Shown here piece after piece: positions 9,370 to 64,000 of a stretch of 64,000 nucleotides of DNA. Each line of letters opens with the position of its first letter. Positions within the stretch are counted from its first letter, which is position 1. The position numbers were made by a program, and so were the translations under genes. The DNA is from an uncultured Rikenellaceae bacterium (GTDB lineage Bacteria; Bacteroidota; Bacteroidia; Bacteroidales; VadinHA17). The notes under the pieces were generated by a model. That model searched no databases, was not told the origin of the DNA, and was given only the letters and a program-made list of their open reading frames with translations. The stretch lies in NCBI GenBank assembly GCA_964516485.1, contig CAZEYY010000001.1, forward strand, positions 12,653-76,652. The letters are read 5' to 3'.

Positions 9370-9402
9370 TTTAATTTGTATGTGTTTAATAATAAATATA
9401 TT

Positions 9403-34046: not shown

Positions 34047-34231
34047 AACTGATTGTGGCAAATAGATCTTAAGGGTATATTGTTAAATACAAAGGTTTGT
34101 GGATGAGAATAATATCATTCGACTATGGAGCGTAATGTAATAAATTTTGAAATCAGCTTTGTGTTTCATAATTTTCTTTCAAATAACCATAGGGACATTT
34201 TAATTATTAAAAATGAATTTATTTGACTTAA

Positions 34232-34318
34232 TAATCAACCACCCCGGCCGCAATGAAGTTTTGCAATATTATGATAAACAATGTAATGCGGCCACCCCTC
34301 CTTCAAAAGGAGGGGAAA
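34232..34318 (-). repeat. 87-bp GC-hairpin repeat element, copy B (inverted relative to copy A)
   Basis: Its reverse complement reproduces both conserved ends of copy A exactly (30 nt and 19 nt), with a core of the same 38-nt length. The copies are separated by a 185-nt AT-rich spacer. Confidence 0.75.
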
Positions 34319-34443
34319 ATTTATCCCGGCTGTTTCACTATAAAAAGCCCCTTAGCTTAACAACAATAAAAAGCTCTCAGGATTTCTTAAAGTCCCCCCA
34401 GGGGAGCAAATTAGCTCTCTATAGCTGCCGGGATAGGACTGGG

Positions 34444-46408: not shown

Positions 46409-46411
46409 AAG

Positions 46412-47191
46412 CTATTGTATAAAATTGTAATTATAGAATCCTTTAATTCTTTCGTCATCACTCGAAAATACAGTATCGAATTTTCCTACCTGCAGGAATT
46501 TGCCATCGCCAAGCATGGCTATCCTGTTGCCAGTGTTCTTGGCACAGGTAAGGTCGTGCGTGATAATAATTGAGCTTGTATTATACTTATGCTGAACCTC
46601 ATTTATCAGATCGATTATTTCCACGCTTGTTATCGGATCGAGACCTGCCGTGGGTTCATCGTAAAGCATAATTTCCGGCTTGGTGATCATGGCCCTGGCA
46701 ATGCCTATTCTCTTCCTTTGTCCGCCTGAAAGGTCAGCAGGCATCTGATAGATTTTTTCTGACAGGGCAACTGCATCAAGCACCTCCTCAATCGATCTCT
46801 TAACTTCCTTACGGTCAATGTTTTTATAGTTCATTGTCAGAGGGAAGGCAAGATTCTGGTAAACATTCATACTGTCGTACAGGGCGCCGCTCTGGAATGA
46901 AAAGCCTATTCGCAGGCGGAGAGAATTCAGTTCGGTCAGCGATATTTTGTCAACTCTTTTTCCAAAGACATAAACATCTCCCTTGTCAGGTTTAAGCAAT
47001 CCGGTTATGATCTTCAGAAGAACTGATTTGCCGGACCCGGACCTTCCTAGAACAGTCAGGTTTTCCTGCCTGTGAAGGATCAGGTCAATACCGCTGAGTA
47101 CCTGCAGATCATCAAATGATTTGTATAAACCTTCAATCGATATGACGGTTTCAAGCTTTTCTTTTTCCGGATCTGAGATAAAACTTCCCAT
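46412..47191 (-). CDS. ABC transporter ATP-binding protein (MlaF-like)
   Basis: Walker A GRSGSGKSV, signature LSGGQRKRIGIARAM and Walker B MLYDEPTAGLD. Confidence 0.9.
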   Translation of the reverse strand: MGSFISDPEKEKLETVISIEGLYKSFDDLQVLSGIDLILHRQENLTVLGRSGSGKSVLLKIITGLLKPDKGDVYVFGKRVDKISLTELNSLRLRIGFSFQSGALYDSMNVYQNLAFPLTMNYKNIDRKEVKRSIEEVLDAVALSEKIYQMPADLSGGQRKRIGIARAMITKPEIMLYDEPTAGLDPITSVEIIDLINEVQHKYNTSSIIITHDLTCAKNTGNRIAMLGDGKFLQVGKFDTVFSSDDERIKGFYNYNFIQ

Positions 47192-47194
47192 TTC

Positions 47195-47995
47195 TTATAA
47201 ATATCTGATCCAGTTTACAATCTGTACTATAATAAATTCTTCCATGAAAATAAGGAAGATTGAAAATACAACTGCTTTATTAGCAGCCATACCTACACCG
47301 CGTGTGCCCTGTGTGGCATTGAAACCCTTGTAGCATCCTACCATGCCGATTGTAAATCCATAGGTAGCAGCTTTTATGACATTCGTGAAAATATCAAGGA
47401 AATAAATAGAGCTGAAAGCATTGCGCAAAAAAGTCTGGATGCTTATACCTTCAACAGAGTTGATATTCATATATGAACCGAGAAGTTCAACAAAATCGCA
47501 GTAAAGCGCCAGAAGACAAATAGATACTGTAGCTGCAACAACCCTTGTAACTACAAGGTATTTAAAGGGATTGATTGCTGAAACTTCCATTGCATCAATC
47601 TGCTCTGTAACTTTCATCGATCCGAGTTCTGCCCCTATACCCGAACCAACTTTGCCTGCAGTGATCAGAGCTGTGACAAGCGGACCGAGAGCCCTGACAG
47701 TAGCAATACCCATAAGTGACGGAAGCCATGATGTTGCTCCGAAAGATTCAAGCGAGGGCCTCGACTGCTTCACAAAAACGAAGCCAACAATAAAACCTGT
47801 TATTGTAATCAGTCCCAGGGACCTGATTCCTATTTCAAATGTCTGATTTACAGTTTCCCTGAAGTAGAAAGGCTTCCTGAAAAGTTCCTTGAAGAACTGA
47901 ACAGTGAACTTAAAACCATTGTAAATATCAGTCAGATTGGAATCAAGATTCTTTGTGAAAATATACCTTCTTCTTATTTGACCTTTCTGTTTCAT
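47195..47995 (-). CDS. MlaE-family ABC transporter permease
   Basis: About 265 aa with 5 TM segments. Characteristic blocks GPLVTALITAGKVGSGIGAELGSMKVTEQIDAM and GTRGVG. Confidence 0.85.
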   Translation of the reverse strand: MKQKGQIRRRYIFTKNLDSNLTDIYNGFKFTVQFFKELFRKPFYFRETVNQTFEIGIRSLGLITITGFIVGFVFVKQSRPSLESFGATSWLPSLMGIATVRALGPLVTALITAGKVGSGIGAELGSMKVTEQIDAMEVSAINPFKYLVVTRVVAATVSICLLALYCDFVELLGSYMNINSVEGISIQTFLRNAFSSIYFLDIFTNVIKAATYGFTIGMVGCYKGFNATQGTRGVGMAANKAVVFSIFLIFMEEFIIVQIVNWIRYL

Positions 47996-50704: not shown

Positions 50705-52228
50705 TTACTGGTTTCTTGCCATTTTTTCAGTCACAATTTTTGTGACTGTCCTGAAGTCTACCTTGCCTGTACTCATCATTGGTATTGATTCAAGAACAAT
50801 GAATTCCCTTGGCAGGGCAATTAACGGAAGATCATTCATCAGCTTCCTTAGAATTTCCATTTTGTGCACCTCGGCTGATACTGCTGCAACAATGTATGAA
50901 CCCTTTTTGTCATCAGGTATATCAACAACACAGCAGATGACACCCTGAGGCAGATATTTTTCCATTATGTTTTCCACCTTCACAAGAGAAACCATTTCTC
51001 CTCCGATCTTGGCAAAACGCTTGAATCTCCCGGCATGATAAAGAAAACCATCACTGTCGAAGTAGCCCATGTCACCGGTATTGTACCAGCCATCCCTAAG
51101 AACCTCATCTGTAAGTTCCTTGTCATCATAGTAGCCCTTCATCACCAGGTCTCCCTTGACCATTATTTTTCCTGTTTCACCGGTTTTGCAGTTTTCTCCT
51201 GTATCAAGATTCTCAATCCTGACCTGGACACCGGGGATAACTTTTCCTATACTACCCGGTTTGTTTTCCGCCGGCGTGTTAACAGAAATTACAGGTGAAG
51301 TTTCTGTTGCACCATAGCCTTCAAGGAGTTGTGAGCCATGCTTCTTCATAAATCCTTCCCTGAGGGAATCAGGCGTTTTGTCTGCTCCTGCAATCATAAG
51401 GCGTAATGACTTGAAGTCGCCCGGTTCAGATTTCTGGAGGTAGCCCCAGAAGAAGCTCGGAGTGCCGACCATAATTGTAGGTTTCTCCTCCCGCGCAATG
51501 TTGCTTACAGCCTGAAAATCAAGAGGATTTGAATATGTAACCATTGTCATTCCATAAACAAAAGGCACCCACAGGTCAACGGTTAGTCCGAATACGTGAA
51601 AGAAAACAAGGTTCGCGAGGATGATATCATCGCTTGTAAGGCCAATCATGGTCCCGAAGCTTATAATGTTCGATGATATGTTCTTGTGTGTGAGCTGTAC
51701 AGCTTTCGGGTCCTTCTCACTTCCGCTGGTGAACAATATTACACAAGTATCGTCCTCCTGTCCCTTATGTATCATGCTGAGGAGAATGTTTTCAGGCATT
51801 TTGGCTTTCAGGGCAGCTTTGATCTTGTCGAAAGAAGTGATTCCTGCCATTATATCTTCAATATATACCATTCCTTCAACAAAAGGACAGCTTATTTTTT
51901 CAAGCAAGGCCTTTGAGACAATTATTGTCTTGAAATGACATTTTTTCTGTGCATACTTTGCATTTGCCTCTGCTCCTGTGGAATAGTTTATCATTACAGG
52001 GATCCTTCCGCTCATAAGTGCAGCTGTTTTTGCAAGCGCACAACCTGCCGAAGTTGGTATCATGATCCCTATGAAACCCTTATCATACTTCTCAAATTTT
52101 GAACTTAAAATGAGAGCTGCAATAAGAGCTCTTTCGTAAGTGACATCCTTTTTAGTGGTTTTGTCTTTTATGGCCAGTTTACCCGGATATTTTTTGGCCA
52201 TTTTCACAAATTGCTGATGCAGAAGCAT
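50705..52228 (-). CDS. AMP-dependent synthetase/ligase (Aas-like acyl-ACP/acyl-CoA synthetase)
   Basis: AMP-binding motif ILFTSGSEKDPKAV (compare E. coli Aas FTSGSEGHPKGV), plus GYGATETSP, TGDMGYFD and GRFKRFAKIGGEMV. The ATG at 52228 (MLLHQQFVKMAKKYP) is preferred over the track start. Confidence 0.85.
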   Translation of the reverse strand: MLLHQQFVKMAKKYPGKLAIKDKTTKKDVTYERALIAALILSSKFEKYDKGFIGIMIPTSAGCALAKTAALMSGRIPVMINYSTGAEANAKYAQKKCHFKTIIVSKALLEKISCPFVEGMVYIEDIMAGITSFDKIKAALKAKMPENILLSMIHKGQEDDTCVILFTSGSEKDPKAVQLTHKNISSNIISFGTMIGLTSDDIILANLVFFHVFGLTVDLWVPFVYGMTMVTYSNPLDFQAVSNIAREEKPTIMVGTPSFFWGYLQKSEPGDFKSLRLMIAGADKTPDSLREGFMKKHGSQLLEGYGATETSPVISVNTPAENKPGSIGKVIPGVQVRIENLDTGENCKTGETGKIMVKGDLVMKGYYDDKELTDEVLRDGWYNTGDMGYFDSDGFLYHAGRFKRFAKIGGEMVSLVKVENIMEKYLPQGVICCVVDIPDDKKGSYIVAAVSAEVHKMEILRKLMNDLPLIALPREFIVLESIPMMSTGKVDFRTVTKIVTEKMARNQ

Positions 52229-52482
52229 AATAATGTTATTTGTTACTTTTTCTGTTATTTCAGCGGCTAATATATATGCAAATATTCGTATTCTAAAATA
52301 TTGCAATGATATTCTAATTTAATATGTTGTAGTAAGGCTTGTAAATAACAGAATAACAAATAAATAAGAAAACAGAAATCTCTTGTAGATTGCATGTGAA
52401 AAATCTGGTCGAAATTATGCTCCAGTCTGTTCGAAGATTTAAATGGGTATGCAGAACAAATAATTACAAGATATGATAATGC

Positions 52483-52531
52483 CTTTGCGACTTTGCGCCT
52501 CTTTCTCTTGCAGAGGCGTAAAGTCGCAAAG
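52483..52531. repeat. 20-bp-stem hairpin (CTTTGCG variant of the CTTTGTG repeat family), possibly an operon terminator
   Basis: The arms ctttgcgactttgcgcctct and agaggcgtaaagtcgcaaag (19/20 complementary) flank the 9-nt loop ttctcttgc. It lies 23 nt downstream of the RND-operon TolC stop on the minus strand. No U-tract follows. Confidence 0.55.
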
Positions 52532-52553
52532 ACAGTATCCCTGAAGACTGATG

Positions 52554-53945
52554 CTATTTATAATCGTTTATTGCCTGCTTATATTTTGCCCTCGACACCT
52601 GGTAATTGCACTTTGCTTCTGTAAGACTGTCAAGTGCTGCCTGATATACCGATTGAGCTTCAAGAAGATCTGACATCCCGGTTATTCCGGCATCGTAATT
52701 GTCTTTTGTGACCTTAAGGTTTTCCTGTGCCTGGGCCACTGATTTTTCAGCATTGCCTATATAGAAGTAGTTCTGATTCAGTTCATTCTGTACCTGGGTG
52801 ATCTGCAGCGATAACAGCTCTGTTGTTTCATTTAACCTGTAACCGGCATATTCAACTTTTGCCTTGCTCTGTTTTATCTTATGTGACCCTCCCCACCAGT
52901 CACTTAAAGGGATATTAAGAGTGGCAAAGGCCATACCAAGCTGGTCGGTTTTATCCATCACATCAGTATATACTCCTGCCACACCAACAGCCAGCTGAGG
53001 CATGTTTTCACCGATTGCTAGCTTTTTCTGTAATTCCTCTGCCTGTACAGCTTTTTCGAGTATCCTGTATTCATTCCTGTTTTTTACTGCCTCTTCAGGG
53101 CTGACATACAGGTCGACAGGATTTTCTGTAACTGAAATTTTATCAGTAAGCATTAAAGTGCTGTCGTACTGAATGCCAATATGCTGACAGAGAGCTTTTT
53201 TGCTTAAGGTTATACCATTTGTCAGTTTTAACCTGTTGCCCTCTAGCTCATTTTGTTTCAATTGAACCTTAAGAAGATCTGTCCTCTGAACAAGACCTGC
53301 ATTGTAAGCCAGAGTCACATCATGATTCAGGTTTTCAAGCAGTTTCATGTAACTGTCGATTGTGACAAGCTTTTCAGTAAGCGCTTTAATGTTCCAGTAA
53401 AGTTCCTCGGTTTTTACAAGTACCTCAGTTTCCGTCATCAGTTTCTTTTCACTGCTGATCTCATATCCGGTTCTTGCAAGCTTGTTTCCATAGTATATCC
53501 TGCCTCCCATGAAAACCGGTTGTGCAGCCATTGCAAAGCCGAAGTTCATATAGTCGATAAGGTTCAGGGGCATTCCCGGGAAATAAGTGAACTGGGTTGC
53601 AAGAGGAATATTTGCCGGATTACCGTCATATACAGGAAGGTTCATCTGTGGTATTGAGCTCTTGACAAGGTAGTCACTCATTTTTACTGCACTGAATCCG
53701 GCTGATACTTTCGGAAAATATGCAGTGAAGGCGCTTTTCTTCACCTGTTCAGCCTGTGATACTTCACTTGCTGATTCTTTTATCTTGTAATTGTTTGTAA
53801 GAGCCAGTGATTTGCATGAATCAAGGCTCAGCCCTGTATTTGAATTTCCATCCGGTGCATTTGTTTTACCTGGTTGGGTATAAGCGGCAGTCTGACCGTA
53901 TATTACAACCGGAATAAACAGGAGGATATATAATAGCTTCTTCAT
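52554..53945 (-). CDS. TolC-family outer membrane factor of RND efflux system
   Basis: Signal peptide and two OEP repeats. A 4-nt ATGA overlap with the upstream RND pump gene. Confidence 0.9.
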   Translation of the reverse strand: MKKLLYILLFIPVVIYGQTAAYTQPGKTNAPDGNSNTGLSLDSCKSLALTNNYKIKESASEVSQAEQVKKSAFTAYFPKVSAGFSAVKMSDYLVKSSIPQMNLPVYDGNPANIPLATQFTYFPGMPLNLIDYMNFGFAMAAQPVFMGGRIYYGNKLARTGYEISSEKKLMTETEVLVKTEELYWNIKALTEKLVTIDSYMKLLENLNHDVTLAYNAGLVQRTDLLKVQLKQNELEGNRLKLTNGITLSKKALCQHIGIQYDSTLMLTDKISVTENPVDLYVSPEEAVKNRNEYRILEKAVQAEELQKKLAIGENMPQLAVGVAGVYTDVMDKTDQLGMAFATLNIPLSDWWGGSHKIKQSKAKVEYAGYRLNETTELLSLQITQVQNELNQNYFYIGNAEKSVAQAQENLKVTKDNYDAGITGMSDLLEAQSVYQAALDSLTEAKCNYQVSRAKYKQAINDYK

Positions 53946-56900
53946 TTTTTCTTTTCATTAAGTTTCCAGTAAAGCACAGGGAGAATTGTTATTGTCATCA
54001 GCAAAAGGAATACTCCGCCTGCGAAAATTATTACTCCAACAGGAGCCCAGAATGAGCTGCCGCTTATAATCATCGGAATAACGCCAACCGAGGCAGCAGC
54101 AGAAGTGAGAAAGATAGGGATCATCCTTCTTTTCCCTGCATCATAGGCAGCTTCTTTTGCCGGCCAGCCATCCTTTAAATATCGTTCCTCGGCATGCTGG
54201 AACATGAGAATTACATTTCTTACAGTAAGTCCGAATAAGCCAATTATACCAAGGGCAGATGTAATTCCGACTGTAAGGTTTGAAACCCAGAGGCCGAAAA
54301 CTGCACCAAACAGAAACAGCATCAATGTAAACAGGGAAATAAATGTCAGTTTGAATTTGCCGTAAGTGAATAGGAAAAAGAAGAATATCACTGCAAAGGC
54401 GGCAAGGATGGCCCAGATTACTGGAAGGAGGTTGTCCCTGTTATATTCTGGTTCTCCTCCCACCTGATACTTAACACTTTCAGGCATCGAAGGAACTATT
54501 TCATTCTCAATGATTTCCTGGATGTGTTTCAGTGGTTTTGCCGGGATAACATTTCTTTTGGTGTCGGCAGTAACTGTTATTGTCCTCATGCCATTTCTGT
54601 GCATAATCGTGTTTTCCTCCCATTTTGGAGTGATATCGGCAACCTGGCGCAGAGGTACGCTTACCGACGGAATGACTGTGGCAATATAAGTGTCTGCAAA
54701 GTTCTCAAGAGGAGGTTTGCCTGTAGCCTCATCAGTTTTAAGCACAATAGGTGTGTTTTTATGGTTTTCGGTTATCGTACCAATGTTGAATTTATCAGTT
54801 GCAAGCAGGATGTTGGCAGCTGTGACAGCCCTTGTCACGCCAAGCTGAGAAGAAGCAACAGGCTTCAATTCAACATCCATTACAGGAAGCATATTGCCCC
54901 AGTCGGTATGGACATTTGTAAGCTCCGGCATTTCACGCATCCTGGCCGAAAGAAGGTCTGCAGCTTTTTTCAGTTCTTCACTGTTTTCACCGTAGAAGCG
55001 AAATTCAAAAGAAGGAACATGCTGAAAATCAATTTGTTTAAACTTGATATATGCCTGCGGAAAATAGTGGGCATATTTATCAGTATATTCATCCAGAACT
55101 GCTTCTGTTTCCTTGAACGAACCTGTGTTTACAATGAACTGTGCATAGCTGTCAGAAGGCATTTTCGGTGCATAAGCAATATGAAAACGCGGTGATGACA
55201 TTCCGTTGAACTGGGTGATTGACTTTACCCTGCTGTCCTCTGAAAGGATTGTCCTCATTGAATCAGCGATCGTTACAGTTTTTGCCAGAGGAGTTCCGTC
55301 GGGCAGATAGATTTCTACCGCAAACTGATTCCTGTCAGCGACAGGATTCATCCTGAACTTGATCAGAGGCATAAGGGCAACAGCAGCTACAATTGAAATA
55401 GCTCCTGCTGAAGCAGTAAGCCACGGATTACGGAAGTTCCAGTCAAGCAGTTTTACATATACATCGTGTACTTTTTCAGTTATTGTCTTCCTTTCGGGAT
55501 TATTGACGTCTATTTTCTTCGGTTTTATAAGTGCCACTTCGAGGATGGGAATCACTACCACCGCGAGTATAAGCGACATCATCATGTTTATTGTGAATGT
55601 AAAGGGGAAGAAGTACAGGAATTCAGCCATCTGACCCTTGAAGAGGATGAGCAGAGGGAAGAAGATAAGGCAGATACAGCTTGTTGCAAGGAACATCGGC
55701 ATAAAATACTTATGCGCGCTCTCAAGTGCTGCTTCCCATGGGGTGGAACCGTTTTTAAGGCAGTGGATATAGCCGTCGATTATTACTATTGAATTATCAA
55801 CTGTCATCCCAAGAACTACAACAAGTGCAGCAAGCGTGACTGTATTCAGCGGAATGCCAAAGAGGTACATTATTCCAACCGAGATAAATGCATTCAGGGG
55901 GATGACAATTGCAGCAACAAGGGCTGAACTTAAGGGGAAGAGGATCATTATTACAATTATTATCACAATAATTGCAAGGATCAGGTCGCGGAGAAATGAA
56001 ACCACGGATCCTTTTACAACCTCCGACTGATCCGTAATCCGGCTTACAGTAACATCCTCAGGCAGTTCCCTTTCCTTGTACTCTGAGATAGTATTGCTTA
56101 CATCTTTCCCGAATTTTACTATGTTGAATCCTTCCCTCATTTCAACAGACAGGATAAGGCAGGGATTTCCGTTATACGTGATATAACTTCCCTCGTCAGG
56201 ATATTCCCTTACAACCTTTGCAACATCCTTTACACGTATCATGTTGCCGGACGGATCAGTAAAGATTATCTGGTCTTCAATTTCCTTAATGCTTGTATAG
56301 GTTGGATTGAAGTGAACGGGAACATGCACCTCATCATTTTTTATGCTTCCTCCAGGGGCAAGTGACTGGCTGAATATTTCAGACATTATAAGTTTCTCGC
56401 TTATACCATAGGAAGTAAGTTTCTTTCTGTCGGCATAAACAGTAACCTGTTCTTCCTTAACCCCGTACATGCGGAGATTGGAGACAGATTCTATACGGCG
56501 AAGGCTGTGTACAAGTTCGTCGGCATATTGCTTAAGCTCGGAGTATGTACGTGATTTTGATTCAATTGCAATAAGCAGGGCTGATACATCTCCGAAGTCA
56601 TCCTGGGCAATAAGTGCCAGAACTCCTGATGGAAGCTCCATTTTAAGAGTTGTAAGCCCGTGCTTTATCTTTGACCATACTTCATCCTTGTTCTTTACAT
56701 TGTCGTTAAGTTCAACAAGGGTGTAACATAATCCGTTCTTCGAGGTTGTTGTTGTATAGCTTCGTTTAACTTCGGGATAGGCAAACAGGAATTTTTCAAG
56801 AGGTTCTGCAAGCTGCTTCTCAACCTCCCCTGTTGTTGCCCCCGGATAAACACCTATAATTATACCCTGCCTGATAGTATAACCCGGAAATTCCTGTTTT

Positions 56901-57010
56901 GGCATAACAATGAGTGCTGTTACTCCGAAAACAACAAGTATTCCGACAAGCAGGAAGATGATGGAGCTATGCTTCATCGACCATTCTATAATACTGTATT
57001 TTCGATTCAT
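53942..57010 (-). CDS. RND efflux transporter permease (AcrB/HAE1-like)
   Basis: 1022 aa with 12-TM and two large periplasmic-loop topology. ACR_tran-like blocks (LGMTVDNSIVIIDG..., IGLFGLTVRNVILM). Confidence 0.95.
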   Translation of the reverse strand: MNRKYSIIEWSMKHSSIIFLLVGILVVFGVTALIVMPKQEFPGYTIRQGIIIGVYPGATTGEVEKQLAEPLEKFLFAYPEVKRSYTTTTSKNGLCYTLVELNDNVKNKDEVWSKIKHGLTTLKMELPSGVLALIAQDDFGDVSALLIAIESKSRTYSELKQYADELVHSLRRIESVSNLRMYGVKEEQVTVYADRKKLTSYGISEKLIMSEIFSQSLAPGGSIKNDEVHVPVHFNPTYTSIKEIEDQIIFTDPSGNMIRVKDVAKVVREYPDEGSYITYNGNPCLILSVEMREGFNIVKFGKDVSNTISEYKERELPEDVTVSRITDQSEVVKGSVVSFLRDLILAIIVIIIVIMILFPLSSALVAAIVIPLNAFISVGIMYLFGIPLNTVTLAALVVVLGMTVDNSIVIIDGYIHCLKNGSTPWEAALESAHKYFMPMFLATSCICLIFFPLLILFKGQMAEFLYFFPFTFTINMMMSLILAVVVIPILEVALIKPKKIDVNNPERKTITEKVHDVYVKLLDWNFRNPWLTASAGAISIVAAVALMPLIKFRMNPVADRNQFAVEIYLPDGTPLAKTVTIADSMRTILSEDSRVKSITQFNGMSSPRFHIAYAPKMPSDSYAQFIVNTGSFKETEAVLDEYTDKYAHYFPQAYIKFKQIDFQHVPSFEFRFYGENSEELKKAADLLSARMREMPELTNVHTDWGNMLPVMDVELKPVASSQLGVTRAVTAANILLATDKFNIGTITENHKNTPIVLKTDEATGKPPLENFADTYIATVIPSVSVPLRQVADITPKWEENTIMHRNGMRTITVTADTKRNVIPAKPLKHIQEIIENEIVPSMPESVKYQVGGEPEYNRDNLLPVIWAILAAFAVIFFFFLFTYGKFKLTFISLFTLMLFLFGAVFGLWVSNLTVGITSALGIIGLFGLTVRNVILMFQHAEERYLKDGWPAKEAAYDAGKRRMIPIFLTSAAASVGVIPMIISGSSFWAPVGVIIFAGGVFLLLMTITILPVLYWKLNEKKK

Positions 57011-58044
57011 TTTCCTGCTATTTTATCGTCTTCACTTATTTTCTGAAAACCTTCTCTTACAATTCTGTCACCTGCTGTGAGGCCGGAAATAATTTCAACA
57101 CCATTTCCCCTGACAGCACCTGTTGTAACATAGGTACGCTTTGCAGTTCCTTCCTTTTCTGTCCAGACAAACTTCCTGTTGTCAGCAGTTGTCTGAACAA
57201 TGCTTATAGGAACAATTATGCCCTTTGATATTTTCGACATGCCCAGCTCAACATTGCATACCATGCCGGGAAGAAGTTCTTTACCCGGATTGCTGAGAAT
57301 AACATGTGCAGGATATGTGTGGGATATGGGATTTGCAACTACATTCTTTTCAATCTTTTTGCCAGTGAATTTTTTATTTCCCAGTGCTGATACCGTAATT
57401 TCTGCATTGCAACCCGAAGTGATTTCTGAAATTTCATTTTCAGGCACAGAAAACTTTGCCTTAACAGTACTGATGTCCAGAATTGTAAGAACAGTTTTTC
57501 CTGGAATAACATATTCACCAGCCTCTGCCATTTTCTGGCCGACAACTCCTTCAGAAGGAGCATACAGGTCACAGTTTTTCAGATTCCGTTCTGCCAGCTC
57601 AAACGATGAATTGGCCTGATGAAGCTTGGTTTCAATATCAATCATCTGAATTTCAGGCAGGCTGCCTTTGTCGTATATCGATTTCAGCCTGTCATAAGCA
57701 TCCTGTGCCTGTTTACGTGTGGCTTCGGCTGCTTCGAACATGCTTTTTGCAGAAGCCTTGTCGAGTGTGGCAAGAAGCTGATTCCTGCGGATGAACTCAC
57801 CTTCTGAAACATATATTCTTTCAATTGTGCCAAGAACAGGAAATCCAAGGGCTACGGAAGATTTTTCTTCAATTATCCCAACATATTCCACCTTGCTTAC
57901 TTCATCCGATTCCTGAATTGTATCTATTTCAACTTTTATTACCGTTTCATTGCCGGATGGCTGATTTTTACCGGTGCAGCTGTTCAATAAGGCAACAGAA
58001 ATGCCTGTTATTACTGCAACTGATCTCAAAGAGATTTTTTTCAT
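57007..58044 (-). CDS. RND efflux periplasmic adaptor subunit
   Basis: Lipobox LLNSC, a hairpin/coiled-coil region, and YAPSEGVVGQ. A 4-nt ATGA overlap with the pump gene. Confidence 0.9.
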   Translation of the reverse strand: MKKISLRSVAVITGISVALLNSCTGKNQPSGNETVIKVEIDTIQESDEVSKVEYVGIIEEKSSVALGFPVLGTIERIYVSEGEFIRRNQLLATLDKASAKSMFEAAEATRKQAQDAYDRLKSIYDKGSLPEIQMIDIETKLHQANSSFELAERNLKNCDLYAPSEGVVGQKMAEAGEYVIPGKTVLTILDISTVKAKFSVPENEISEITSGCNAEITVSALGNKKFTGKKIEKNVVANPISHTYPAHVILSNPGKELLPGMVCNVELGMSKISKGIIVPISIVQTTADNRKFVWTEKEGTAKRTYVTTGAVRGNGVEIISGLTAGDRIVREGFQKISEDDKIAGK

Positions 58045-58204: not shown

Positions 58205-59131
58205 ATGGATGATAAGGGTTTCATAAGCTTTTCTCTTGATACTCTGAGTAAGATGGATCTGTTGTCTGAAGAAGAATACCAGGACTATCTTGGATGTTTC
58301 CTTGCACAGATTGATTCGGATTCCGACAGAAAACTTGAAAAGTTCAGATATCCCTGCCGGATAGATGCATACATTGCCATGCTTTGTGTGAGAGGCAGTG
58401 TTGAGCTGGTGTCAAATCTTAAGCAGTATAAAGTTGAGGAAAACTGTCTCTATGTCAGTATGCCCAAGGATATTATCAATCTGAGCGGCTGGAGTGAATG
58501 CAAATTATACCTGATGGCTTTTGATGACGATTTTATCAGGAAATTCAATCTGAACTATAATAATGTGCTTTCAGTTTTCCTGGGAATTCAGAAGAATCCT
58601 TGTGTCAGACTTACACAACATGAGGCAATATCGCTGCAGGAAGCATTTTTTTCCCTGAAAACTGAAATGGAGGAATTTAAGGGGAAGGACTATTGCAATG
58701 AAATAGTGATGAGCTACATAAATCTGATTACATACAAAGCCTGTTCCTATCTGAGCGCTTACCTGCAGACTCAGAGCGGAGAGTCGGAAAATGTTAATAA
58801 GCGTAACGAGGAATATTATAACAAATTCATGTCTCTTCTCAGGCAGAATTTCAAATCTGAAAGGAGTCTTGAATTTTATGCGGCAAAGCTTTATATAACA
58901 CCTAAATACATGACTTCCCTGATTAAAAGGACCAGTGGAAAATCTGTCATGGAATGGATAAATGAGTGTGTTATAATGGAAGCGAAAAACCTGCTGAAAT
59001 ATTCCGATATGAGCATCCAGGAAATATCTGATTATCTGAATTTTTCAAACCAGTCTTTCTTCTCACAATATTTTAAAAGGATTGCAGGGATCACACCTTC
59101 TGATTACAGAACCAAACCTAACCTTGAGTAA
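58205..59131 (+). CDS. AraC-family transcriptional regulator
   Basis: C-terminal double HTH (LEFYAAKLYITPKYMTSLIKRTSGKSVMEWINE...IQEISDYLNFSNQSFFSQYFKRIAGITPSDYR). Divergent from the RND operon with a 160-bp shared intergenic region. Confidence 0.9.
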   Translation: MDDKGFISFSLDTLSKMDLLSEEEYQDYLGCFLAQIDSDSDRKLEKFRYPCRIDAYIAMLCVRGSVELVSNLKQYKVEENCLYVSMPKDIINLSGWSECKLYLMAFDDDFIRKFNLNYNNVLSVFLGIQKNPCVRLTQHEAISLQEAFFSLKTEMEEFKGKDYCNEIVMSYINLITYKACSYLSAYLQTQSGESENVNKRNEEYYNKFMSLLRQNFKSERSLEFYAAKLYITPKYMTSLIKRTSGKSVMEWINECVIMEAKNLLKYSDMSIQEISDYLNFSNQSFFSQYFKRIAGITPSDYRTKPNLE

Positions 59132-59137
59132 GTATTG

Positions 59138-60916
59138 TTATTTAATTAACAGTCTTCTGCAAGCTTCAGTATAATATATCATTGGATACATTTTTTCATC
59201 ATACCACAGCATGGCAAAGTAAAGCCCTATTGGTGAAGCTTTCATTCCGGAATTTCTGTCGAGCCATTGAAGTCCCTTCAGGCAGGCAGCTTCATCTATA
59301 GCTGCCAGGGCACTTATTGCAAGTGATGTTTCTTCAATTGTTCCCTCAACATCTTTTTCACCTCCCCAGCTGCCATCAGTATTCTGATTACTGATAAGGT
59401 ATGCATGTGCCTTTTCAAGCATTACGGACAGATTGTTTTTCAATTTTTTATCCGGAAGATTCAGATTAAGGCAATCGCTTAGGTAAATGCTCACTTTTGC
59501 TGTGCCGTAAACAGGATTGCTTTTTGTTTCAGTAAGCTGATTTCCAAACCATAATGGCAGCCACGAACCGTTTTTCATCTGCTGTCTTTCCAGATAGGCG
59601 ACAGCCTTATTTATACTGACTGTCAGTCTTTTCCTGAGAGCTGCCGGCATACTATCAATTTCACAGAGGGATTTTAGCATAGCAAGCAGTGCGTGGCCTG
59701 TAAGGTCAGCACAGCTTTTGTCAAAGGGAAGCCGGCCCCAGCCTTTGCAGAATGTAGGAAAGCCTCCATCTTTATTCTGCAATTCAGTAAGCCATTCACA
59801 GCCACGCAGTACCGCTTTAATCTCATCATCAGAACCTGTAAACATTTCAAGCAGGGCAAGTATGGCGCCCGGTGTGTCATCAGCGTCAGGTACTGAGCCT
59901 GAGTGACTTGTCCAGCCCCAGCCTCCCGGCTTTGCACCATTGAAGGGGTGCACTGACTTATACTGAAGTGCGAGTATGTGCTTTCTCAGCCTGCCTGACT
60001 GTTCTTCATTCAGGTTTTTCCTGAGATCTTTGCCCAGAGCCTTTATTGTGAGTGTGGTAACCCATGTTGAAAGATCGGTATCAATAGGCCATCCTCCTTC
60101 TTTGCGTTGCTGAAGCCTCAGGAATTCAAGGCCTTTTGTTACAGTTTTGTTGTCAGGTCTGTTGCTTGCAATGAGGCACAGGGCAACAAAGCCGGTAAGT
60201 GGTATTGCTTCAAGGAAACCACCGCTTTCAGGCAGCAGTTTGTTTAACCTGTCAATGGCAGGCTTAATAAATAGACTCCTGAGAAAGCTGACAGGATTTT
60301 TACTGTTTTGCTGTTTAAGAAGAAAGATGCCAACGCCAATTAGTGCAGGCAAGGCATAGCTGACAACCCTCAGGTTGAAGAACCTGTACAATGACTGTGG
60401 AAGCAGTGTAAGCTCAAAAGGGAGTCCCGGAATGTGCCTTGCTGATTCCCGCGGAATCACATTGCAAACGGTGAGCATTGCAAGTATAGGTACTGAGAAT
60501 GTGTAGTCTTTACCGTAAAACCGAAGAATTGACTTCGTAATTGATTCAAGATCAAGTAATATACCGTTAAAAGCCAGCCATTCTTTCATCCTTTTGATGC
60601 TTCCAGCTCCGTTCCCGTTTGTCTGACAATAATTTATTGCTGCATAGCTGAGCAGTGTTGTACTGACGTTACTTATTGATTCCGGCGTATCACCAAAACC
60701 ACCGTCATCATTAATATTCCTGAGAAGCCATTCCAGTCCGTTATTGATTATTTTCCAATCATCAGGATTCCCGTTTATTTTAAGTGCCGTAATAGCAACT
60801 GCAGTCGATAAGGCGCTTGATGACAATTCACCTGTCCAGAATCCTTCTGAATTCATCTCATTCTTCAGGCGGATGCAGAGTCCGGAATAGATATCAGCTA
60901 TGTTTGTATTATTCAT
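59138..60916 (-). CDS. Squalene-hopene-cyclase-family class II terpene cyclase (DxDD-type)
   Basis: Collinear with SHC. EGFWTGELSS matches EGYWWGPLLS, KPGGWGWTSHSGSVPDADDTPGAILAL matches KPGGFAFQFDNVYYPDVDDTAVVVWAL, and NPVYGTAKV matches YLYGTGAVV. QW-type repeats QQRKEGGW, QQMKNGSW and QNTDGSW are present. The DADD acid motif is at nt 59876-59887. Confidence 0.85.
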   Translation of the reverse strand: MNNTNIADIYSGLCIRLKNEMNSEGFWTGELSSSALSTAVAITALKINGNPDDWKIINNGLEWLLRNINDDGGFGDTPESISNVSTTLLSYAAINYCQTNGNGAGSIKRMKEWLAFNGILLDLESITKSILRFYGKDYTFSVPILAMLTVCNVIPRESARHIPGLPFELTLLPQSLYRFFNLRVVSYALPALIGVGIFLLKQQNSKNPVSFLRSLFIKPAIDRLNKLLPESGGFLEAIPLTGFVALCLIASNRPDNKTVTKGLEFLRLQQRKEGGWPIDTDLSTWVTTLTIKALGKDLRKNLNEEQSGRLRKHILALQYKSVHPFNGAKPGGWGWTSHSGSVPDADDTPGAILALLEMFTGSDDEIKAVLRGCEWLTELQNKDGGFPTFCKGWGRLPFDKSCADLTGHALLAMLKSLCEIDSMPAALRKRLTVSINKAVAYLERQQMKNGSWLPLWFGNQLTETKSNPVYGTAKVSIYLSDCLNLNLPDKKLKNNLSVMLEKAHAYLISNQNTDGSWGGEKDVEGTIEETSLAISALAAIDEAACLKGLQWLDRNSGMKASPIGLYFAMLWYDEKMYPMIYYTEACRRLLIK

Positions 60917-60918: not shown

Positions 60919-61797
60919 TCAGTCAGCCAGTGAACCAAGTGCAAGTAAACCGTAAAAAGTATATTCAAGGTCAGTCTCTTCATCGAGTTTATTACCGCAA
61001 AAGCCTCCTTCCTTAAAGAGTGAATCTATAGAATCAAGGCATTCAGGTTTGATTATTGTCAGATCATATTCAGAAAAACGGAGAGCATAGAGAGATGCTG
61101 CAGTTGACAGTAAATCAGTGGTGGCAGTGTTCTTAAGGGCCCTGAATCCTCCTCCTGAGTAGAATTGTACGGTAAGCCTGTCCTGAAGCTCTGCCACAGG
61201 TTTGCTGAAAGAGGAGTGCAGCACAATAAGTGCGGCTAAAACAGTTGAAGGCAATGCTCCGGGATCATTAAGCTTGCTGAGGTGCTTTCTTATTCTCAGT
61301 GCCTGAATGTAATCTCCTGTCCGATAAGAGACAAGAAGATCCAGGAAGGCACCGTATTCAGCCTGCTTTGCTTTATGCTCCATAAATTCCCGGCGTACAT
61401 TCTTTAATAGTTTCCTGATCAGCTTTTTGTCGTCTGTAAGTTCATTGGCAAGGATGGCGGCACATTTCAGATTCACACCTGTTGGCATTGACTTTCCTGT
61501 TTCATTCCTCACAAATTCACCGGTGCCCTGAAGAATGTCATTCATTTCAAGAGCCTGGGCAAGATAAAAGCCGAAAAGTGAGTAATACAGGTCAGCTTTA
61601 CCTGCCCTGTCAGTAAAGCCTCCGGAAGGGTGTTGTCTGTCTGCAACAAATTTTTTAATATCGTTTATTGTACCGGGATCAAGAAGAGCAAGTGATTTTC
61701 TGAGAACAACAGCCGGACTCTGTGTCTCAAATTTCCTCAGGTATGGTCTCAGAAAGAGCTTAGAGATATTTGCTGAATGTCTTTCCAACGATCTCAT
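60919..61797 (-). CDS. Small prenyltransferase-beta / terpene-cyclase-repeat (alpha-alpha toroid) protein
   Basis: 292 aa with PFTB-like repeats (QHPSGGFTDRAGKADLYYSLFGF, FYSGGGFRALKNTATTDLLSTAASLYAL, FKEGGFCGNKLDEETDLEYTFYGL). It lies 2 nt upstream of the cyclase gene, and its start overlaps the preceding gene by 38 nt. Confidence 0.6.
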   Translation of the reverse strand: MRSLERHSANISKLFLRPYLRKFETQSPAVVLRKSLALLDPGTINDIKKFVADRQHPSGGFTDRAGKADLYYSLFGFYLAQALEMNDILQGTGEFVRNETGKSMPTGVNLKCAAILANELTDDKKLIRKLLKNVRREFMEHKAKQAEYGAFLDLLVSYRTGDYIQALRIRKHLSKLNDPGALPSTVLAALIVLHSSFSKPVAELQDRLTVQFYSGGGFRALKNTATTDLLSTAASLYALRFSEYDLTIIKPECLDSIDSLFKEGGFCGNKLDEETDLEYTFYGLLALGSLAD

Positions 61798-63343
61798 GGA
61801 GGGCGAGTTTTAAAGGAAGATTTTTTACTTCCGAAAGACAGGCATTTATATTGCCGAGAAATTCCCTTATCATGTCTTCAGCATCTGATCCAATTCCATA
61901 TTCATCAAGCATAATGCGTAATTCATCATTACTGTTGTTTCTGACAGCATTTACTATTGAATCATGTTTTTCAGGACCTGCCTTTTCAGCAAGCATTGAA
62001 ATGAGTACTGAGGGATTTCTGAGTCCTGCACTGTTTTTATCGCTGAGGTCCTCAAGGTCATCCTTAAGCTGGTAGGCAATCCCGGTCATCAGGCTGAAGC
62101 GGGAAAGGATCTCGGTTGAACCACTATCTGCTCCTCCGGCAATGGCGCCGGTAAGCAGTGAAACTTTAAAAGCCTGTCCTGTTTTATTCTCAAAAATTCT
62201 CAGGACTTCTGTAACTGATGGTATGATGTTGTTCTTCCGGGCCATCAGTTCATATCCCTGTCCTGCCGACATTGCCCTGTGACCTTCTGCAGCTGTTTTT
62301 ATGCAGTCTGACTTTATTCTGCAATCAATTTTACAATCTGAAAGCAGCCTGTATCCTTCACCGATAAGAAGGTCTCCAGTGTTGACAGCAACCGGTATGC
62401 CATGCCTTGCATGCAGTGTCTGTTTTCCATACCTGAACTCGTCGCCATCCTCAATGTCATCGTGTACAAGCGAGGCCTTGTGAAAACATTCTATTGAAAC
62501 GGCTAGTAGTTTAAGCAGCTCCGGGTCATTGTTTTTGCTGTATGTCTGATATGCAAGAGCCGTTAGCAGGGGACGAATACGTTTTCCACCGGCAAGCATA
62601 AGTTCCAGAATAATTGCATCAGCGGGGTTCTGTGAAATATTTAACAGTCGGATGATCTCATTTTCAGCGAATAAGGATTCTATTTTGCCCCTTAGGTCAT
62701 TCAGGTTTACAAGATGTAAATTTTCATTGTTCCTGTAATTACCTAATTCCTCCATTATCCACTTTTTATCAGCTATTGTGTCGGTGCAGCCCGAAGAAAT
62801 AAGTGGTACACCGATAGCAGGTACTGCAAAATTGCTAACTTCCCTGAATATTTTCTGCAGTGTTTCCATGCAGCCAACGCCAATTATGGCATCAACCCTG
62901 CCACTTTCAACAAGCTGTGATGCTATAGTTGTCCCTTCGGCAACAATTGTGATGTATCCCAGTCTTTCGGCTTCCTGTATAAATTCCGGAATGTTGCAGT
63001 TCCCGCACTCCCTGCATAAAAGCCCGAATTCATCCTCGGGAGCTGTGCACTTCCGGCTGTTCTTCAGGCAATGGGGGAGAAGCAGCATTCGTTTGTGATA
63101 TGGTATAGTTTCAACAATGGGTCTCCAGACGGCATTGCCGCAACAAACCATTGTGAAGGCTTTCAGCTCATCATCCCATTTATTTTCAGAAAGCAGTTTG
63201 CCTGCAAGTTCTGAAAGCCTGTTGAATGATACAGGCGGTTCAGTCGGATTTGCACTGAGAAACTCATCAGCGCTTCTCCGGATTTCTTCCCTGAAACTGT
63301 TTTCGGCCGGTACAACAAGCGATATTATCTTTTCTGACATCAT
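61760..63343 (-). CDS. Fusion protein: Cys-rich DUF116-like N-domain + trans-polyprenyl diphosphate synthase
   Basis: The N-terminal roughly 200 aa carries LLLPHCLKNSRKCTAPEDEFGLLCRECGNCNI...GVGCMETL...SSGCTD (DUF116-like). The C-terminal domain has GKRIRP, the first Asp-rich motif LVHDDIED (nt 62447-62461) and the second Asp-rich motif YQLKDDLED (nt 62048-62062). Confidence 0.85.
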   Translation of the reverse strand: MMSEKIISLVVPAENSFREEIRRSADEFLSANPTEPPVSFNRLSELAGKLLSENKWDDELKAFTMVCCGNAVWRPIVETIPYHKRMLLLPHCLKNSRKCTAPEDEFGLLCRECGNCNIPEFIQEAERLGYITIVAEGTTIASQLVESGRVDAIIGVGCMETLQKIFREVSNFAVPAIGVPLISSGCTDTIADKKWIMEELGNYRNNENLHLVNLNDLRGKIESLFAENEIIRLLNISQNPADAIILELMLAGGKRIRPLLTALAYQTYSKNNDPELLKLLAVSIECFHKASLVHDDIEDGDEFRYGKQTLHARHGIPVAVNTGDLLIGEGYRLLSDCKIDCRIKSDCIKTAAEGHRAMSAGQGYELMARKNNIIPSVTEVLRIFENKTGQAFKVSLLTGAIAGGADSGSTEILSRFSLMTGIAYQLKDDLEDLSDKNSAGLRNPSVLISMLAEKAGPEKHDSIVNAVRNNSNDELRIMLDEYGIGSDAEDMIREFLGNINACLSEVKNLPLKLALHEIVGKTFSKYL

Positions 63344-63355: not shown

Positions 63356-64000
63356 TCATCCGTATGAACCCATTCCAAAGAAGGCTGTCTTTTTCGCCAG
63401 CCTGTAAAGAAGACTTTTTTCAGGAATCACGGGAGCAGAACCATGACTGACTATTTTCGGCGCCGATTCAAGGTCATTCAGGTAAGTATCTCGCATTGAT
63501 GAATTCGCAGCCTTGTGCTTTTCCGAAAATGACTTAAGCCATGCGGGATCTTCCATCAGTATACAACCCTGCGTTCTGCCTTTTATCTGCTTCCTGAAGT
63601 CTTTCAGAAAATCTGAGCTTTCATATATGTTCTCAATTTTGCCCTTTTCAATATTCTCCGCAGCAAGCTGAATTACCGGACATGGTTCAATGTCGCCTGA
63701 AGGATTAATATGATGACTCAGCCCGTCGGCAGCAGGGCAAAATGGTTGTCCGTCTGAATGCCAGTATGAATCGATGAGAACCATAGGCAGCCTTGTTCTT
63801 CCTTCAACAAGAAAGCTTCTCAGTCTGGTGATTTCCTCCAGATTAAGAGCCAGTTCATAGCATGGTTTGCTTCCTGAAGGTCTGTAAATGTAATACCATA
63901 TATATATAACACCCAGGTCATGGAGCATCTTTACGAAACTTTCGGAGAGCGCCATGTCGATATTTGATTTGCAGACACTTATTGCCACTCCTGTAATAAG
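63356..64000 (-). CDS. Radical-SAM-like enzyme, C-terminal part with twitch/SPASM-type Cys motif (5' end outside window)
   Basis: The frame is open to the window edge. It shows TIM-barrel-like strands (GVAISVCKSN, GVIYIWYYIYRPSG) and C-x13-G-x4-C (CPAADGLSHHINPSGDIEPC). The CxxxCxxC cluster motif would lie beyond 64000 and is not seen. Confidence 0.5.
   Translation of the reverse strand, partial: LITGVAISVCKSNIDMALSESFVKMLHDLGVIYIWYYIYRPSGSKPCYELALNLEEITRLRSFLVEGRTRLPMVLIDSYWHSDGQPFCPAADGLSHHINPSGDIEPCPVIQLAAENIEKGKIENIYESSDFLKDFRKQIKGRTQGCILMEDPAWLKSFSEKHKAANSSMRDTYLNDLESAPKIVSHGSAPVIPEKSLLYRLAKKTAFFGMGSYG

Follow-up and report, generated by a model that had tools for sequence, protein, structure and literature searches.

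An SHC-like class II cyclase at the end of a conserved gene cassette, and the case for a polycyclic isoprenoid lipid other than hopene

The gene at positions 59138..60916, on the minus strand of the 64-kb window (by which we mean the whole stretch of DNA that was analysed), is an exact ATG-to-stop open reading frame, whose 592-aa product is a class II (beta-gamma) terpene cyclase that matches Pfam SQHop_cyclase_N and SQHop_cyclase_C. The acid motif pointed out in an earlier note on this DNA, SVPDADDTPG, is indeed present at residues 341-350 and contains the sole DxDD of the protein (residues 344-347). The codons of this proton donor (D344-A345-D346-D347, positions 59876..59887, minus strand) align with D374, D376 and D377 of the squalene-hopene cyclase (SHC), and the three aspartates are found in 57/57, 56/57 and 56/57 family members, respectively. 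The same note had counted at least three QW-type repeats; three motifs that follow the strict pattern ([KR][GA]x2-3[FYW][LIV]x3Qx2-5GxW) lie at residues 261, 437 and 502, with one relaxed motif at residue 375, and not one of 2000 shuffled versions of the protein (0/2000) contained three core QW motifs. The C-terminal segment that it singled out, GLYFAMLWYDEKMYP, occupies residues 564-578, with G564, Y566, F567, Y572 and Y577 invariant across the family. The protein is also short, as had been remarked, when set against the 631 aa of the SHC of A. acidocaldarius. The difference comes mostly from about 45 residues missing opposite SHC 183-235 and from shorter loops; the usual length of family members is 585-625 aa. 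Only three basic positions are conserved (R213, R271 and K/R391), and there is therefore no obvious diphosphate-binding cluster. An Rfam scan of the whole window gave no match, and what a scan for promoters and terminators returned was not above shuffled expectation.

Downstream, and convergent on the cyclase gene, lies an AraC-family regulator (58205..59131, plus strand; Pfam HTH_18), no homologue of which adjoins the cyclase in 80 other loci. This regulator, an RND efflux pump and an acyl-ACP ligase can be ruled out as parts of the system, since none of them adjoins the cyclase elsewhere. On the upstream side, the genes are tightly packed or overlapping, and all are on the minus strand. The nearest (60919..61797) ends 2 nt before the start of the cyclase gene, overlaps the next gene by 38 nt, and codes for an accessory alpha/alpha-barrel protein of 292 aa with repeats of the prenyltransferase-beta type and without DxDD. 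Its match to Pfam Prenyltrans is weak (23.5 bits for a cut-off of 26.5), a sequence search of the PDB with it found nothing, and its AF2 model (pLDDT 89.9) gives weak matches to (alpha/alpha)6 barrels of the PDB. There is no support for taking it as the beta subunit of a zinc protein-prenyltransferase or as another cyclase: a conserved Cys/His triad and DxDD are both lacking, and its fold matches are weak. Barrel-cyclase fusion proteins of 898-960 aa have an N-terminal domain homologous to the 292-aa protein (E 5e-22), and this fusion to the cyclase in other lineages suggests that the barrel works physically with the cyclase.

The following gene (61760..63343) codes for a fusion of 527 aa between a DUF116 domain (Pfam, 112 bits) and a trans-isoprenyl diphosphate synthase-like domain (polyprenyl_synt, 135.7 bits for a cut-off of 27 bits). 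In Pfam scans of the neighbours and of 37 further ORFs, this is the only polyprenyl_synt match in the window, so that the statement of the earlier note that the operon contains a single prenyl-chain gene was right as far as the window goes. Finally, positions 63356..64000 contain the last 214 codons of the gene for a radical SAM enzyme, which is cut by the end of the window; they score 366 bits against a full-length orthologue from another locus (L001), which has the CxxxCxxC motif, further conserved C-terminal Cys and a match to Pfam Radical_SAM. Orthologues of this enzyme have about 362-392 aa, and its gene is the most conserved of the set. It reaches the cut-off of no curated family, and its sequence matches in the PDB are weak (BlsE 36 bits, GDGT-MAS 19.6 bits). 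In particular, it can be ruled out that it is HpnH: it scores 44.5 bits against TIGR03470 (cut-off 225.05), in a match limited to the radical SAM core, and this score is no better than those for NirJ, AhbD or BlsE-type enzymes. The barrel gene, the radical SAM gene and the DUF116 domain fused to the synthase had not been mentioned in the earlier note.

Comparison with other genomes shows that these genes are part of a conserved cassette of five, in the order ferredoxin-like protein, radical SAM enzyme, DUF116-fused prenyl diphosphate synthase-like enzyme, 292-aa barrel protein and cyclase. The ferredoxin-like protein (2x[4Fe-4S]) is encoded, in the present case, beyond the end of the window. 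In 58 loci with adequate flank (31 of them from Bacteroidota), the cyclase gene has beside it the synthase gene in 53/58, the ferredoxin-like gene in 50/58, the barrel gene in 46/58 and the radical SAM gene in 42/58; the linkage of cyclase and synthase is thus kept across phyla. All four partners are present together in 39/58 loci, and in 29/31 of those from Bacteroidota, and about one third of the loci outside Bacteroidota are without some of the partner genes nearby. The combination of a radical SAM/SPASM-type enzyme with a barrel could also call to mind a RiPP system, and we ruled out this reading because the operon is too tightly packed to leave room for a precursor-peptide ORF and because the prenyl synthase is conserved.

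How close is the cyclase to a genuine SHC? The end-to-end collinearity claimed in the earlier note does hold, and is remote: in a global hhalign alignment (probability 99.9%, 23% identity), residues 6-591 correspond to residues 11-626 of the A. acidocaldarius enzyme, and with phmmer the score against the SHC sequence of the PDB is only 47 bits. The AlphaFold (AF2) model of the cyclase (pLDDT 94.3) has SHC as its top Foldseek match in the PDB (TM 0.75, E 4e-20, 19-20% identity), followed by drimenyl diphosphate synthase and then by OSC. The cyclase thus resembles A. acidocaldarius SHC (PDB 1GSZ/2SQC) in its beta-gamma double alpha/alpha-barrel fold, its DxDD proton donor with His and Tyr partners, its QW motifs (although it has 3 strict ones where SHC has 7) and its aromatic-lined cavity; a monotopic association with the membrane, as in SHC, is probable. 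We also carried out, against SHC, the comparison of active-site residues that had been proposed, with a split outcome: the proton-donor site of SHC is kept, and its termination network is not. The partners of the proton donor are H408 (H451 in SHC), D404 (D447) and Y470 (Y495), and each of these three, like D344, D346 and D347, recurs in 41 to 57 of 57 family members. Conservation extends to the aromatic residues W285, W335, F389, F398, W456, F567 and Y577. Conversely, in a mapping that relies on a profile alignment at 23% identity, V/T, L, V/I/T, L and M stand in place of the SHC termination residues E45, E93, Q262, T41 and W133, and the position of R127 varies in the family. The curated models agree with this distance, with 76.3 bits against TIGR01507 (the SHC model, cut-off 431.1) and 102 bits against TIGR01787 (cut-off 322.7). 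With all such models far below cut-off, a canonical SHC, OSC or tetrahymanol synthase is ruled out, and the protein, while a member of the SHC superfamily and a class II cyclase with DxDD, is not a canonical SHC.

On sequence grounds, this cyclase belongs to a separate sister family of the SHCs, which is both large and widespread. The family comprises 473 clusters at 50% identity (E<=1e-30), with homologues in the genomes of at least 595 species from Bacteroidota, Planctomycetota, Verrucomicrobiota/Lentisphaerae and Acidobacteriota; the 80 genomes listed among these at least 595 include Bacteroidales, Planctomycetota (Gemmataceae among them), Verrucomicrobiota, Lentisphaerae, Kiritimatiellae and Acidobacteriota. 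Within the family, 150 representatives score at least 346 bits, against the 47 bits of the PDB SHC sequence. The gene in the window is one ordinary member. We infer that this family corresponds to the clade called 'SHC-like / unknown function' in the literature, which, in the accessible text of PMC7306690 and PMC12414744, covers the PVC group, the FCB group including Bacteroidota, Acidobacteriota and Spirochaetota, with proteins of 550-700 aa. Clade and family are alike in taxon range, length class and conserved catalytic residues, and in a genomic context that points away from squalene. According to the part of PMC12414744 available to us, neither the function nor the structure of any member of this clade has been determined in the literature.

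The idea of a substrate other than squalene is itself not new: as far as the accessible text of PMC7306690 goes, Santana-Molina et al. (2020) had already inferred a non-squalene precursor for the planctomycete 'SHC-like' proteins from their genomic context. The fusion of DUF116 to a polyprenyl synthase was also noted previously, in the planctomycete Pirellula staleyi (PMC5898192), and a Bipolaricaulota preprint lists genes for DUF116, 'SHC', 'adenosyl-hopene transferase' and polyprenyl synthetase together, without biochemistry on them. We found no description of the five-gene cassette, of the fusions of barrel-cyclase and cyclase-propeller type, or of the atypical synthase motifs in the accessible parts of PMC7306690 and PMC12414744, and no characterised version of the cassette came up in our searches of the literature. 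The gromomycins are squalene-independent bacterial triterpenes, and their cyclase is unrelated.

The earlier note had proposed that the cyclase may act on a linear polyprenyl diphosphate, or a derivative of it, rather than on squalene. The first half of this proposal has gained ground, in that the enzyme is not a canonical SHC, its linkage to the synthase is conserved, and Pfam found no SQS_PSY or hpn-type gene among the neighbours and 37 further ORFs of the 64-kb window. A non-squalene substrate thus appears plausible. The second half fares less well, because the neighbour is not a textbook head-to-tail synthase. Some of its motifs are canonical: GKRxRP, with G253 and R257 invariant, and the first Asp-rich motif (D295-D-I-E-D299), with D295, D296 and D299 invariant. 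However, R304-Y305 in 64/64 sequences gives RYG instead of RRG, the second Asp-rich motif is variable (D428 is Asn in 9/64 sequences, giving NDxxD, and D432 is Glu in 21/64), the GK...GKxT motif is absent, and all the NCBIfam synthase models remain far below their cut-offs (at best 111 bits vs 275). Seven Cys, CxxCxxC among them, are invariant in the N-terminal DUF116 domain, whose fusion to the synthase is obligatory. Judging from these motifs, the enzyme might not make a simple all-trans polyprenyl diphosphate.

On balance, we think it rather probable that the cyclase is a class II 'SHC-like' enzyme, encoded by the last gene of a conserved cytoplasmic cassette, and that this cassette leads to a non-hopene polycyclic isoprenoid lipid. 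The product is probably a polycyclic lipid, because the operon of the cyclase contains prenyl-chain and iron-sulfur/radical enzymes and not the squalene pathway. The synthase-like enzyme would build an isoprenoid chain from IPP and an allylic diphosphate; the small residues at -5 and -4 (A290 and S291) and the Phe at -8 (F287) before its first Asp-rich motif suggest a chain longer than C20, perhaps C25-C35, on the understanding that chain-length rules drawn from positions -4, -5 and -8 are a guide only. This chain, possibly after a reductive or radical step carried out by the Fe-S and radical SAM partners, would enter the cyclase from the membrane. The conserved D346, activated by H408 as in SHC, would then protonate the terminal isopropylidene double bond, and the cavity, lined by the conserved aromatic residues, would guide polycyclisation. 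The expected result is a polycyclic isoprenoid lipid, and without the SHC termination network this lipid should be something other than hopene. The presence of a radical SAM enzyme, a ferredoxin-like protein and DUF116 in the same cassette implies that the redox step would be independent of oxygen.

Several other readings have to be weighed against this one. It might be that a C15-C25 prenyl diphosphate is cyclised with retention of its diphosphate, as by drimenyl or copalyl diphosphate synthases, to give a specialised metabolite that is then tailored by the radical SAM enzyme. This is suggested by the rank of bacterial drimenyl diphosphate synthases as second-best structural matches of the cyclase, by the GGPP and FPP synthases that are the best PDB matches of the synthase domain, and by the resemblance of the cassette to a compact biosynthetic gene cluster. 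We nevertheless consider it unlikely. The cyclase, with an SHC-sized beta-gamma architecture, exceeds the bacterial C15/C20 class II cyclases by about 100 residues and has no conserved basic cluster for diphosphate binding, and a distribution over whole phyla is more what one would expect of a membrane-lipid trait than of a specialised metabolite. In addition, the residues that precede the first Asp-rich motif of the synthase are small at -5 and -4, unlike those of type I and II FPP and GGPP synthases.

Another reading, which we hold to be improbable, takes the deviations of the synthase at face value and makes the cassette a route, independent of oxygen and of NADPH, to a symmetric substrate resembling squalene, obtained when the synthase-like domain couples two prenyl diphosphates irregularly (non-head-to-tail). 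The reductive or rearrangement chemistry would come from the DUF116 Fe-S domain, the ferredoxin-like protein and the radical SAM enzyme, and the cyclase would receive a substrate with two terminal isopropylidene ends, as does SHC. Such a scheme would account for the alteration of the homoallylic-site motifs (RYG, the Asn in 9/64 sequences and the missing GK...GKxT), for the permanent fusion of the synthase to a seven-Cys domain in a cassette with ferredoxin-like and radical SAM proteins, and for the retention of the strong-acid SHC initiation site in the cyclase. In addition, chrysanthemyl diphosphate synthase, which couples irregularly and arose from FPP synthase, carries a D-to-N change at the position of this Asn. 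On the other side, no precedent is known for this enzyme chemistry, the first Asp-rich motif and GKRxRP of the synthase are canonical, the distal half of the cyclase cavity is unlike that of SHC, and the basis of the scheme is purely one of motif deviations.

Lower still we place the idea of a diverged and functional squalene-hopene (or squalene-to-other-triterpene) cyclase, with squalene genes elsewhere in the genome and neighbours engaged in a different pathway: the SHC fold, the complete DxDD, His and Tyr proton-donor machinery, the name 'squalene--hopene cyclase' given to homologues in some public sources and a view limited to one 64-kb window of the genome speak for it, but its bit scores fall 3- to 6-fold short of the cut-offs of the curated SHC models, the cyclase forms a separate family with its own five-gene context in at least four phyla, the termination network is missing, the window has no squalene-synthase gene, and SHC is described as nearly absent from the FCB group, Bacteroidetes included, in the accessible text of PMC7306690, and is reported to be absent or extremely rare in bacteroidota (bioRxiv 10.1101/2025.07.29.667474).

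The preferred reading, that of a non-hopene polycyclic isoprenoid lipid, can be carried one step further, in a form that we put forward as a long shot: the cassette could be the long-sought oxygen-independent pathway of bacteria to regular (all head-to-tail) polycyclic polyprenoids, including lipids of the tricyclohexaprenol type. The synthase-like enzyme would then make a polyprenyl chain of C30 or longer. For lack of the SHC termination site, the cyclase would start from the omega end of this chain and close no more than the first few rings, and the resulting lipid would serve the membranes of sediment anaerobes (Bacteroidales, Planctomycetota, Acidobacteriota). The tricyclic terpanes (cheilanthanes), 'orphan biomarkers' that are ubiquitous in sediments and oils, are hypothesised to derive from lipids of this tricyclohexaprenol type (PMC9247107).

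The substrate of this clade is described, in the part of PMC12414744 available to us, as the one most in need of identification for resolving the evolution of triterpenoid cyclases. A compact cassette of five genes is now defined, with a clear set of partners (a prenyl synthase-like enzyme, a radical SAM enzyme, two Fe-S proteins and an extra barrel), and it has cultured carriers: Mangrovibacterium lignilyticum (BM_7), Sunxiuqinia elliptica (CGMCC 1.9156), S. rutila, Draconibacterium mangrovi (GM2-18), Marinifilum breve (JC075), M. caeruleilacunae, Planctomycetaceae SH248 and Gemmata obscuriglobus. Complete genomes with the cassette include OY782766.1, OY781971.1, OY764876.1 and GCA_040772825.1. 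Should the product be a polycyclic lipid made without squalene and without oxygen, it would represent a new class of bacterial membrane or envelope lipids and a candidate source for orphan polycyclic terpane fossils, and would bring to light new Fe-S or radical chemistry on isoprenoids.

Among known systems, SHC itself is associated with hpn genes, whereas the present cyclase has as partners a prenyl synthase-like enzyme, a radical SAM enzyme and Fe-S proteins. The sporulenol synthase SqhC of Bacillus, a C35 tetraprenyl-beta-curcumene cyclase, is an SHC-type class II enzyme whose natural substrate comes from a head-to-tail polyprenyl diphosphate and not from squalene, and it is the precedent to which the earlier note had referred. 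SqhC needs a heptaprenyl diphosphate synthase and the class I enzyme YtpB, which removes the diphosphate. This class I terpene synthase partner has no counterpart in the cassette or among its conserved neighbours, and, in the accessible text of PMC7306690 and PMC12414744, SqhC branches with the SHCs and is confined to Bacillota. The epoxy-polyprenyl cyclases Lon15 and AtoE, class II enzymes acting on all-head-to-tail C25-C40 chains, are reported, in the part of the literature available to us, as the sister group of the 'unknown' clade. They are mostly from actinomycetes and use epoxidised substrates, which require O2; in contrast, the cassette is without epoxidase, its cyclase has kept the strong-acid DxDD, and its Fe-S and radical SAM partners are of the kind found in anaerobes. 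Finally, HpnH, which adds 5'-deoxyadenosyl to a terpenoid alkene, and the radical SAM enzyme of the cassette are alike in that both are encoded next to an SHC-type cyclase.

The ORF at 59138..60916 (minus strand) encodes a protein of 592 aa, the cyclase, which the earlier note had described as a class II cyclase collinear with squalene-hopene cyclase (SHC), and its motifs, its alignment with SHC and its structural matches show that this description was correct. The acid motif SVPDADDTPG is indeed found at residues 341-350, with the sole DxDD of the protein at 344-347; the "at least three" QW-type repeats are three strict motifs (at residues 261, 437 and 502) plus a relaxed one at 375, three or more core motifs being reached in 0 of 2000 shuffles of the sequence; and the C-terminal segment GLYFAMLWYDEKMYP is present, among the best-conserved stretches of the family. 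With hhalign, a profile of 57 relatives aligns end to end with the A. acidocaldarius SHC (reference sequence identical to PDB 1GSZ chain A), residues 6-591 matching SHC 11-626 with 99.9% probability and 23% identity. The solved structures that best match the AlphaFold model (pLDDT 94.3, pTM 0.94) are those of SHC (TM 0.75, 19-20% identity), followed by a bacterial drimenyl diphosphate synthase, then by human oxidosqualene cyclase. The protein is thus a class II terpene cyclase of the beta-gamma type.

That it is a canonical SHC can be ruled out, since it stays far below the cut-offs of the curated NCBI models: the hopene cyclase model gives 76 bits where 431 are required, and the model for squalene/oxidosqualene cyclases 102 where 322.7 are. 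The scores are 70 bits against 851 for oxidosqualene cyclase and 45 against 500 for tetrahymanol synthase, and phmmer gives 47 bits with the PDB SHC sequence. The cyclase belongs to a separate family: in a library of 1.8 billion proteins, clustered at 50% identity, 473 cluster representatives match with E<=1e-30, and the best 150 all score at least 346 bits. Relatives occur in at least 595 species genomes (one genome scanned per species), and the best 80 of these include many Bacteroidales (Prolixibacteraceae, Marinifilaceae, Rikenellaceae), Planctomycetota (Gemmataceae, Pirellulales, Gimesia, Phycisphaerae), as well as Verrucomicrobiota, Lentisphaerae, Kiritimatiellae, Acidobacteriota, Sumerlaeota and Hydrogenedentes. 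The same taxon set and length class characterise the clade named "SHC-like" by Santana-Molina et al. 2020 (PMC7306690) and labelled "unknown function" in a 2025 terpenoid-cyclase phylogeny (PMC12414744). From taxa and length we infer with good support that the family belongs to this clade. None of the 14 cyclases assayed in the 2025 study (PMC12414744) comes from it. The gene in the window is an ordinary member of the family, and specialists already recognise the clade as uncharacterised.

The cyclase gene is the last of a minus-strand operon of tightly packed genes. A radical SAM gene, truncated by the window end, lies 12 nt from a gene for a 527-aa fusion of DUF116 and polyprenyl_synt (61760-63343), which overlaps by 38 nt the gene of a 292-aa alpha/alpha-barrel protein (60919..61797), itself ending 2 nt ahead of the cyclase start. 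All ORFs of 81 related loci were translated, searched with the operon proteins and clustered all against all; the conserved set consists of these four genes and that of a 259-aa ferredoxin-like Fe-S protein (two 4Fe-4S motifs and an additional Cys-rich N-terminal part), which in the source genome would lie just past base 64000, outside the window. Counted over the 58 loci whose flanks reach far enough, 53 have the synthase gene, 50 the ferredoxin-like one, 46 that of the barrel protein and 42 that of the radical SAM enzyme; the complete set of four partners accompanies the cyclase in 39 of 58 (29 of 31 in Bacteroidota). The order is rearranged to ferredoxin-cyclase-synthase in Planctomycetaceae.

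For the barrel protein the model (pLDDT 89.9) shows a generic (alpha/alpha)6 fold, which weakly resembles prenyltransferase beta subunits, GH76 enzymes and the domains of class II cyclases; its sequence has neither a DxDD nor zinc ligands. Its homologues (E 5e-22) include the N-terminal domain of proteins of 898-960 aa that otherwise consist of the cyclase, and this fusion argues that the two work together. The radical SAM enzyme, the best-conserved member of the cassette (66-80% identity among the homologues listed, mostly Bacteroidales wherever the source names an organism), has a CxxxCxxC motif and additional conserved C-terminal Cys residues and matches no defined family; HpnH can be rejected (44.5 bits against 225). 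The DUF116 domain, with seven invariant Cys including a CxxCxxC, is a predicted metal-binding electron-transfer module already known fused to polyprenyl synthetase in Pirellula (Makarova et al., PMC5898192). To take the synthase domain for a plain head-to-tail polyprenyl synthase says more than the data allow. Its first Asp-rich motif is invariant, but an equally invariant RYG (residues 304-305) stands in place of the RRG of trans-prenyl synthases, the family lacks the GK...GKxT motif, and no product-specific curated cut-off is reached. Moreover, in 9 of 64 sequences, from planctomycetes in those individually inspected, the second Asp-rich motif (within residues 428-443) starts with Asn instead of Asp. 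The enzyme may be something other than a normal chain-elongating synthase. By the usual chain-length rules, A and S at -5 and -4 and Phe at -8 of the first Asp-rich motif argue for a product somewhat longer than FPP or GGPP.

We think it rather probable that the cyclase would protonate an alkene of an isoprenoid built by its own cassette, giving a polycyclic lipid other than hopene, with an oxygen-independent Fe-S or radical step before or after cyclisation. A non-squalene precursor is already in print for planctomycete members (Santana-Molina et al. 2020, PMC7306690). That the cyclase acts on shorter prenyl diphosphates is unlikely, with the drimenyl diphosphate synthase match on one side and the chain-length residues on the other. 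Slightly more doubtful is an Fe-S-dependent route to a symmetric squalene-like substrate, which would sit beside the atypical synthase motifs and Fe-S partners and would be unprecedented; equally doubtful is that its products are regular polycyclic polyprenoids of the tricyclohexaprenol type, from which the tricyclic terpanes, orphan biomarkers, are hypothesised to derive (PMC9247107). Least probable is a diverged true squalene cyclase supplied from elsewhere in the genome: the SHC fold is there, but scores lie far below the cut-offs, no SQS_PSY, HpnE-like or other hopanoid gene turned up in the 64 kb when the operon, the genes around it and another 37 ORFs were scanned with Pfam, in line with the earlier remark that no squalene supply is visible, and published surveys describe SHC as almost missing from the FCB group, Bacteroidetes included (PMC7306690), and as absent or extremely rare in Bacteroidota (bioRxiv 10.1101/2025.07.29.667474).

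Secreted BamB/PQQ_2-type beta-propeller genes flank the cassette in 21 loci, often as 2-4 tandem copies (for example L004:2419-3534, L005:9925-15313, L014:12237-17583), and in the 1092-aa protein P0175 cyclase, transmembrane helix and BamB/PQQ-type propeller are fused, which hints that the product of the cassette may be handed over at the periplasmic side. A CobW/G3E-type GTPase with CxCC (metallochaperone family) is found near the cassette in 16 loci (for example L004:9889-10974, L014:9831-11021, L071:1632-2756), in several Bacteroidales directly behind the cyclase, in Acidobacteriota and Planctomycetota upstream of the cassette; the window has neither propeller nor CobW-type genes. The 64%-identical orthologous locus of a Prolixibacteraceae genome carries behind the cyclase (L001:12382-13805) an HTH_20 regulator, a C_GCAxxG_C_C redox protein and a BioB-like gene, its second radical SAM gene, none of which occurs in the window.

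Lipid-handling genes lie near the cassette at 45446-47995 and 50705-58044 (both minus): an MlaD/MlaF/MlaE-type ABC system, an RND efflux triplet and a free-standing acyl-ACP synthetase, which has an Aas-like ligase domain (PRK08633, 497 bits) but no acyltransferase half. In other genomes these genes do not recur beside the cyclase, and on this ground those for the AraC regulator, the RND efflux pump and the acyl-ACP ligase, on the far side of the cyclase, were rejected as parts of the system. Elsewhere, a DDE_Tnp_1 transposase ORF (16006-17097, plus) stands at the edge of a low-GC stretch at 16-22 kb (36-38% against 40-46% in the rest of the window) in which genes for a DUF4249 protein and a TonB-dependent receptor also lie. 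A 614-aa class-V aminotransferase/cysteine desulfurase-like protein (23117-24961, minus), whose Pfam domain begins at residue 226, has an N-terminal extension of about 225 aa without assignment. For three large ORFs, 9367-11523 (plus, 718 aa), 14357-15766 (minus, 469 aa) and 34213-36654 (plus, 813 aa), Pfam yields nothing at E<=1e-3.

What is new here is a defined five-gene cassette, together with its fusions, a list of carriers in culture, the unusual motifs of the synthase and, on a remote alignment, the loss of the SHC termination site. The active-site comparison that the earlier note had called for indicates that hydrophobic residues take the positions held in SHC by E45, E93, Q262, T41 and W133, a reading to be taken with care in so remote an alignment, so that the polar network ending the hopene cascade would not be retained. 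Like SHC, the cyclase keeps the initiation machinery and many cavity aromatics: D374, D376 and D377 of SHC correspond to its D344, D346 and D347, H451 to H408, D447 to D404 and Y495 to Y470.
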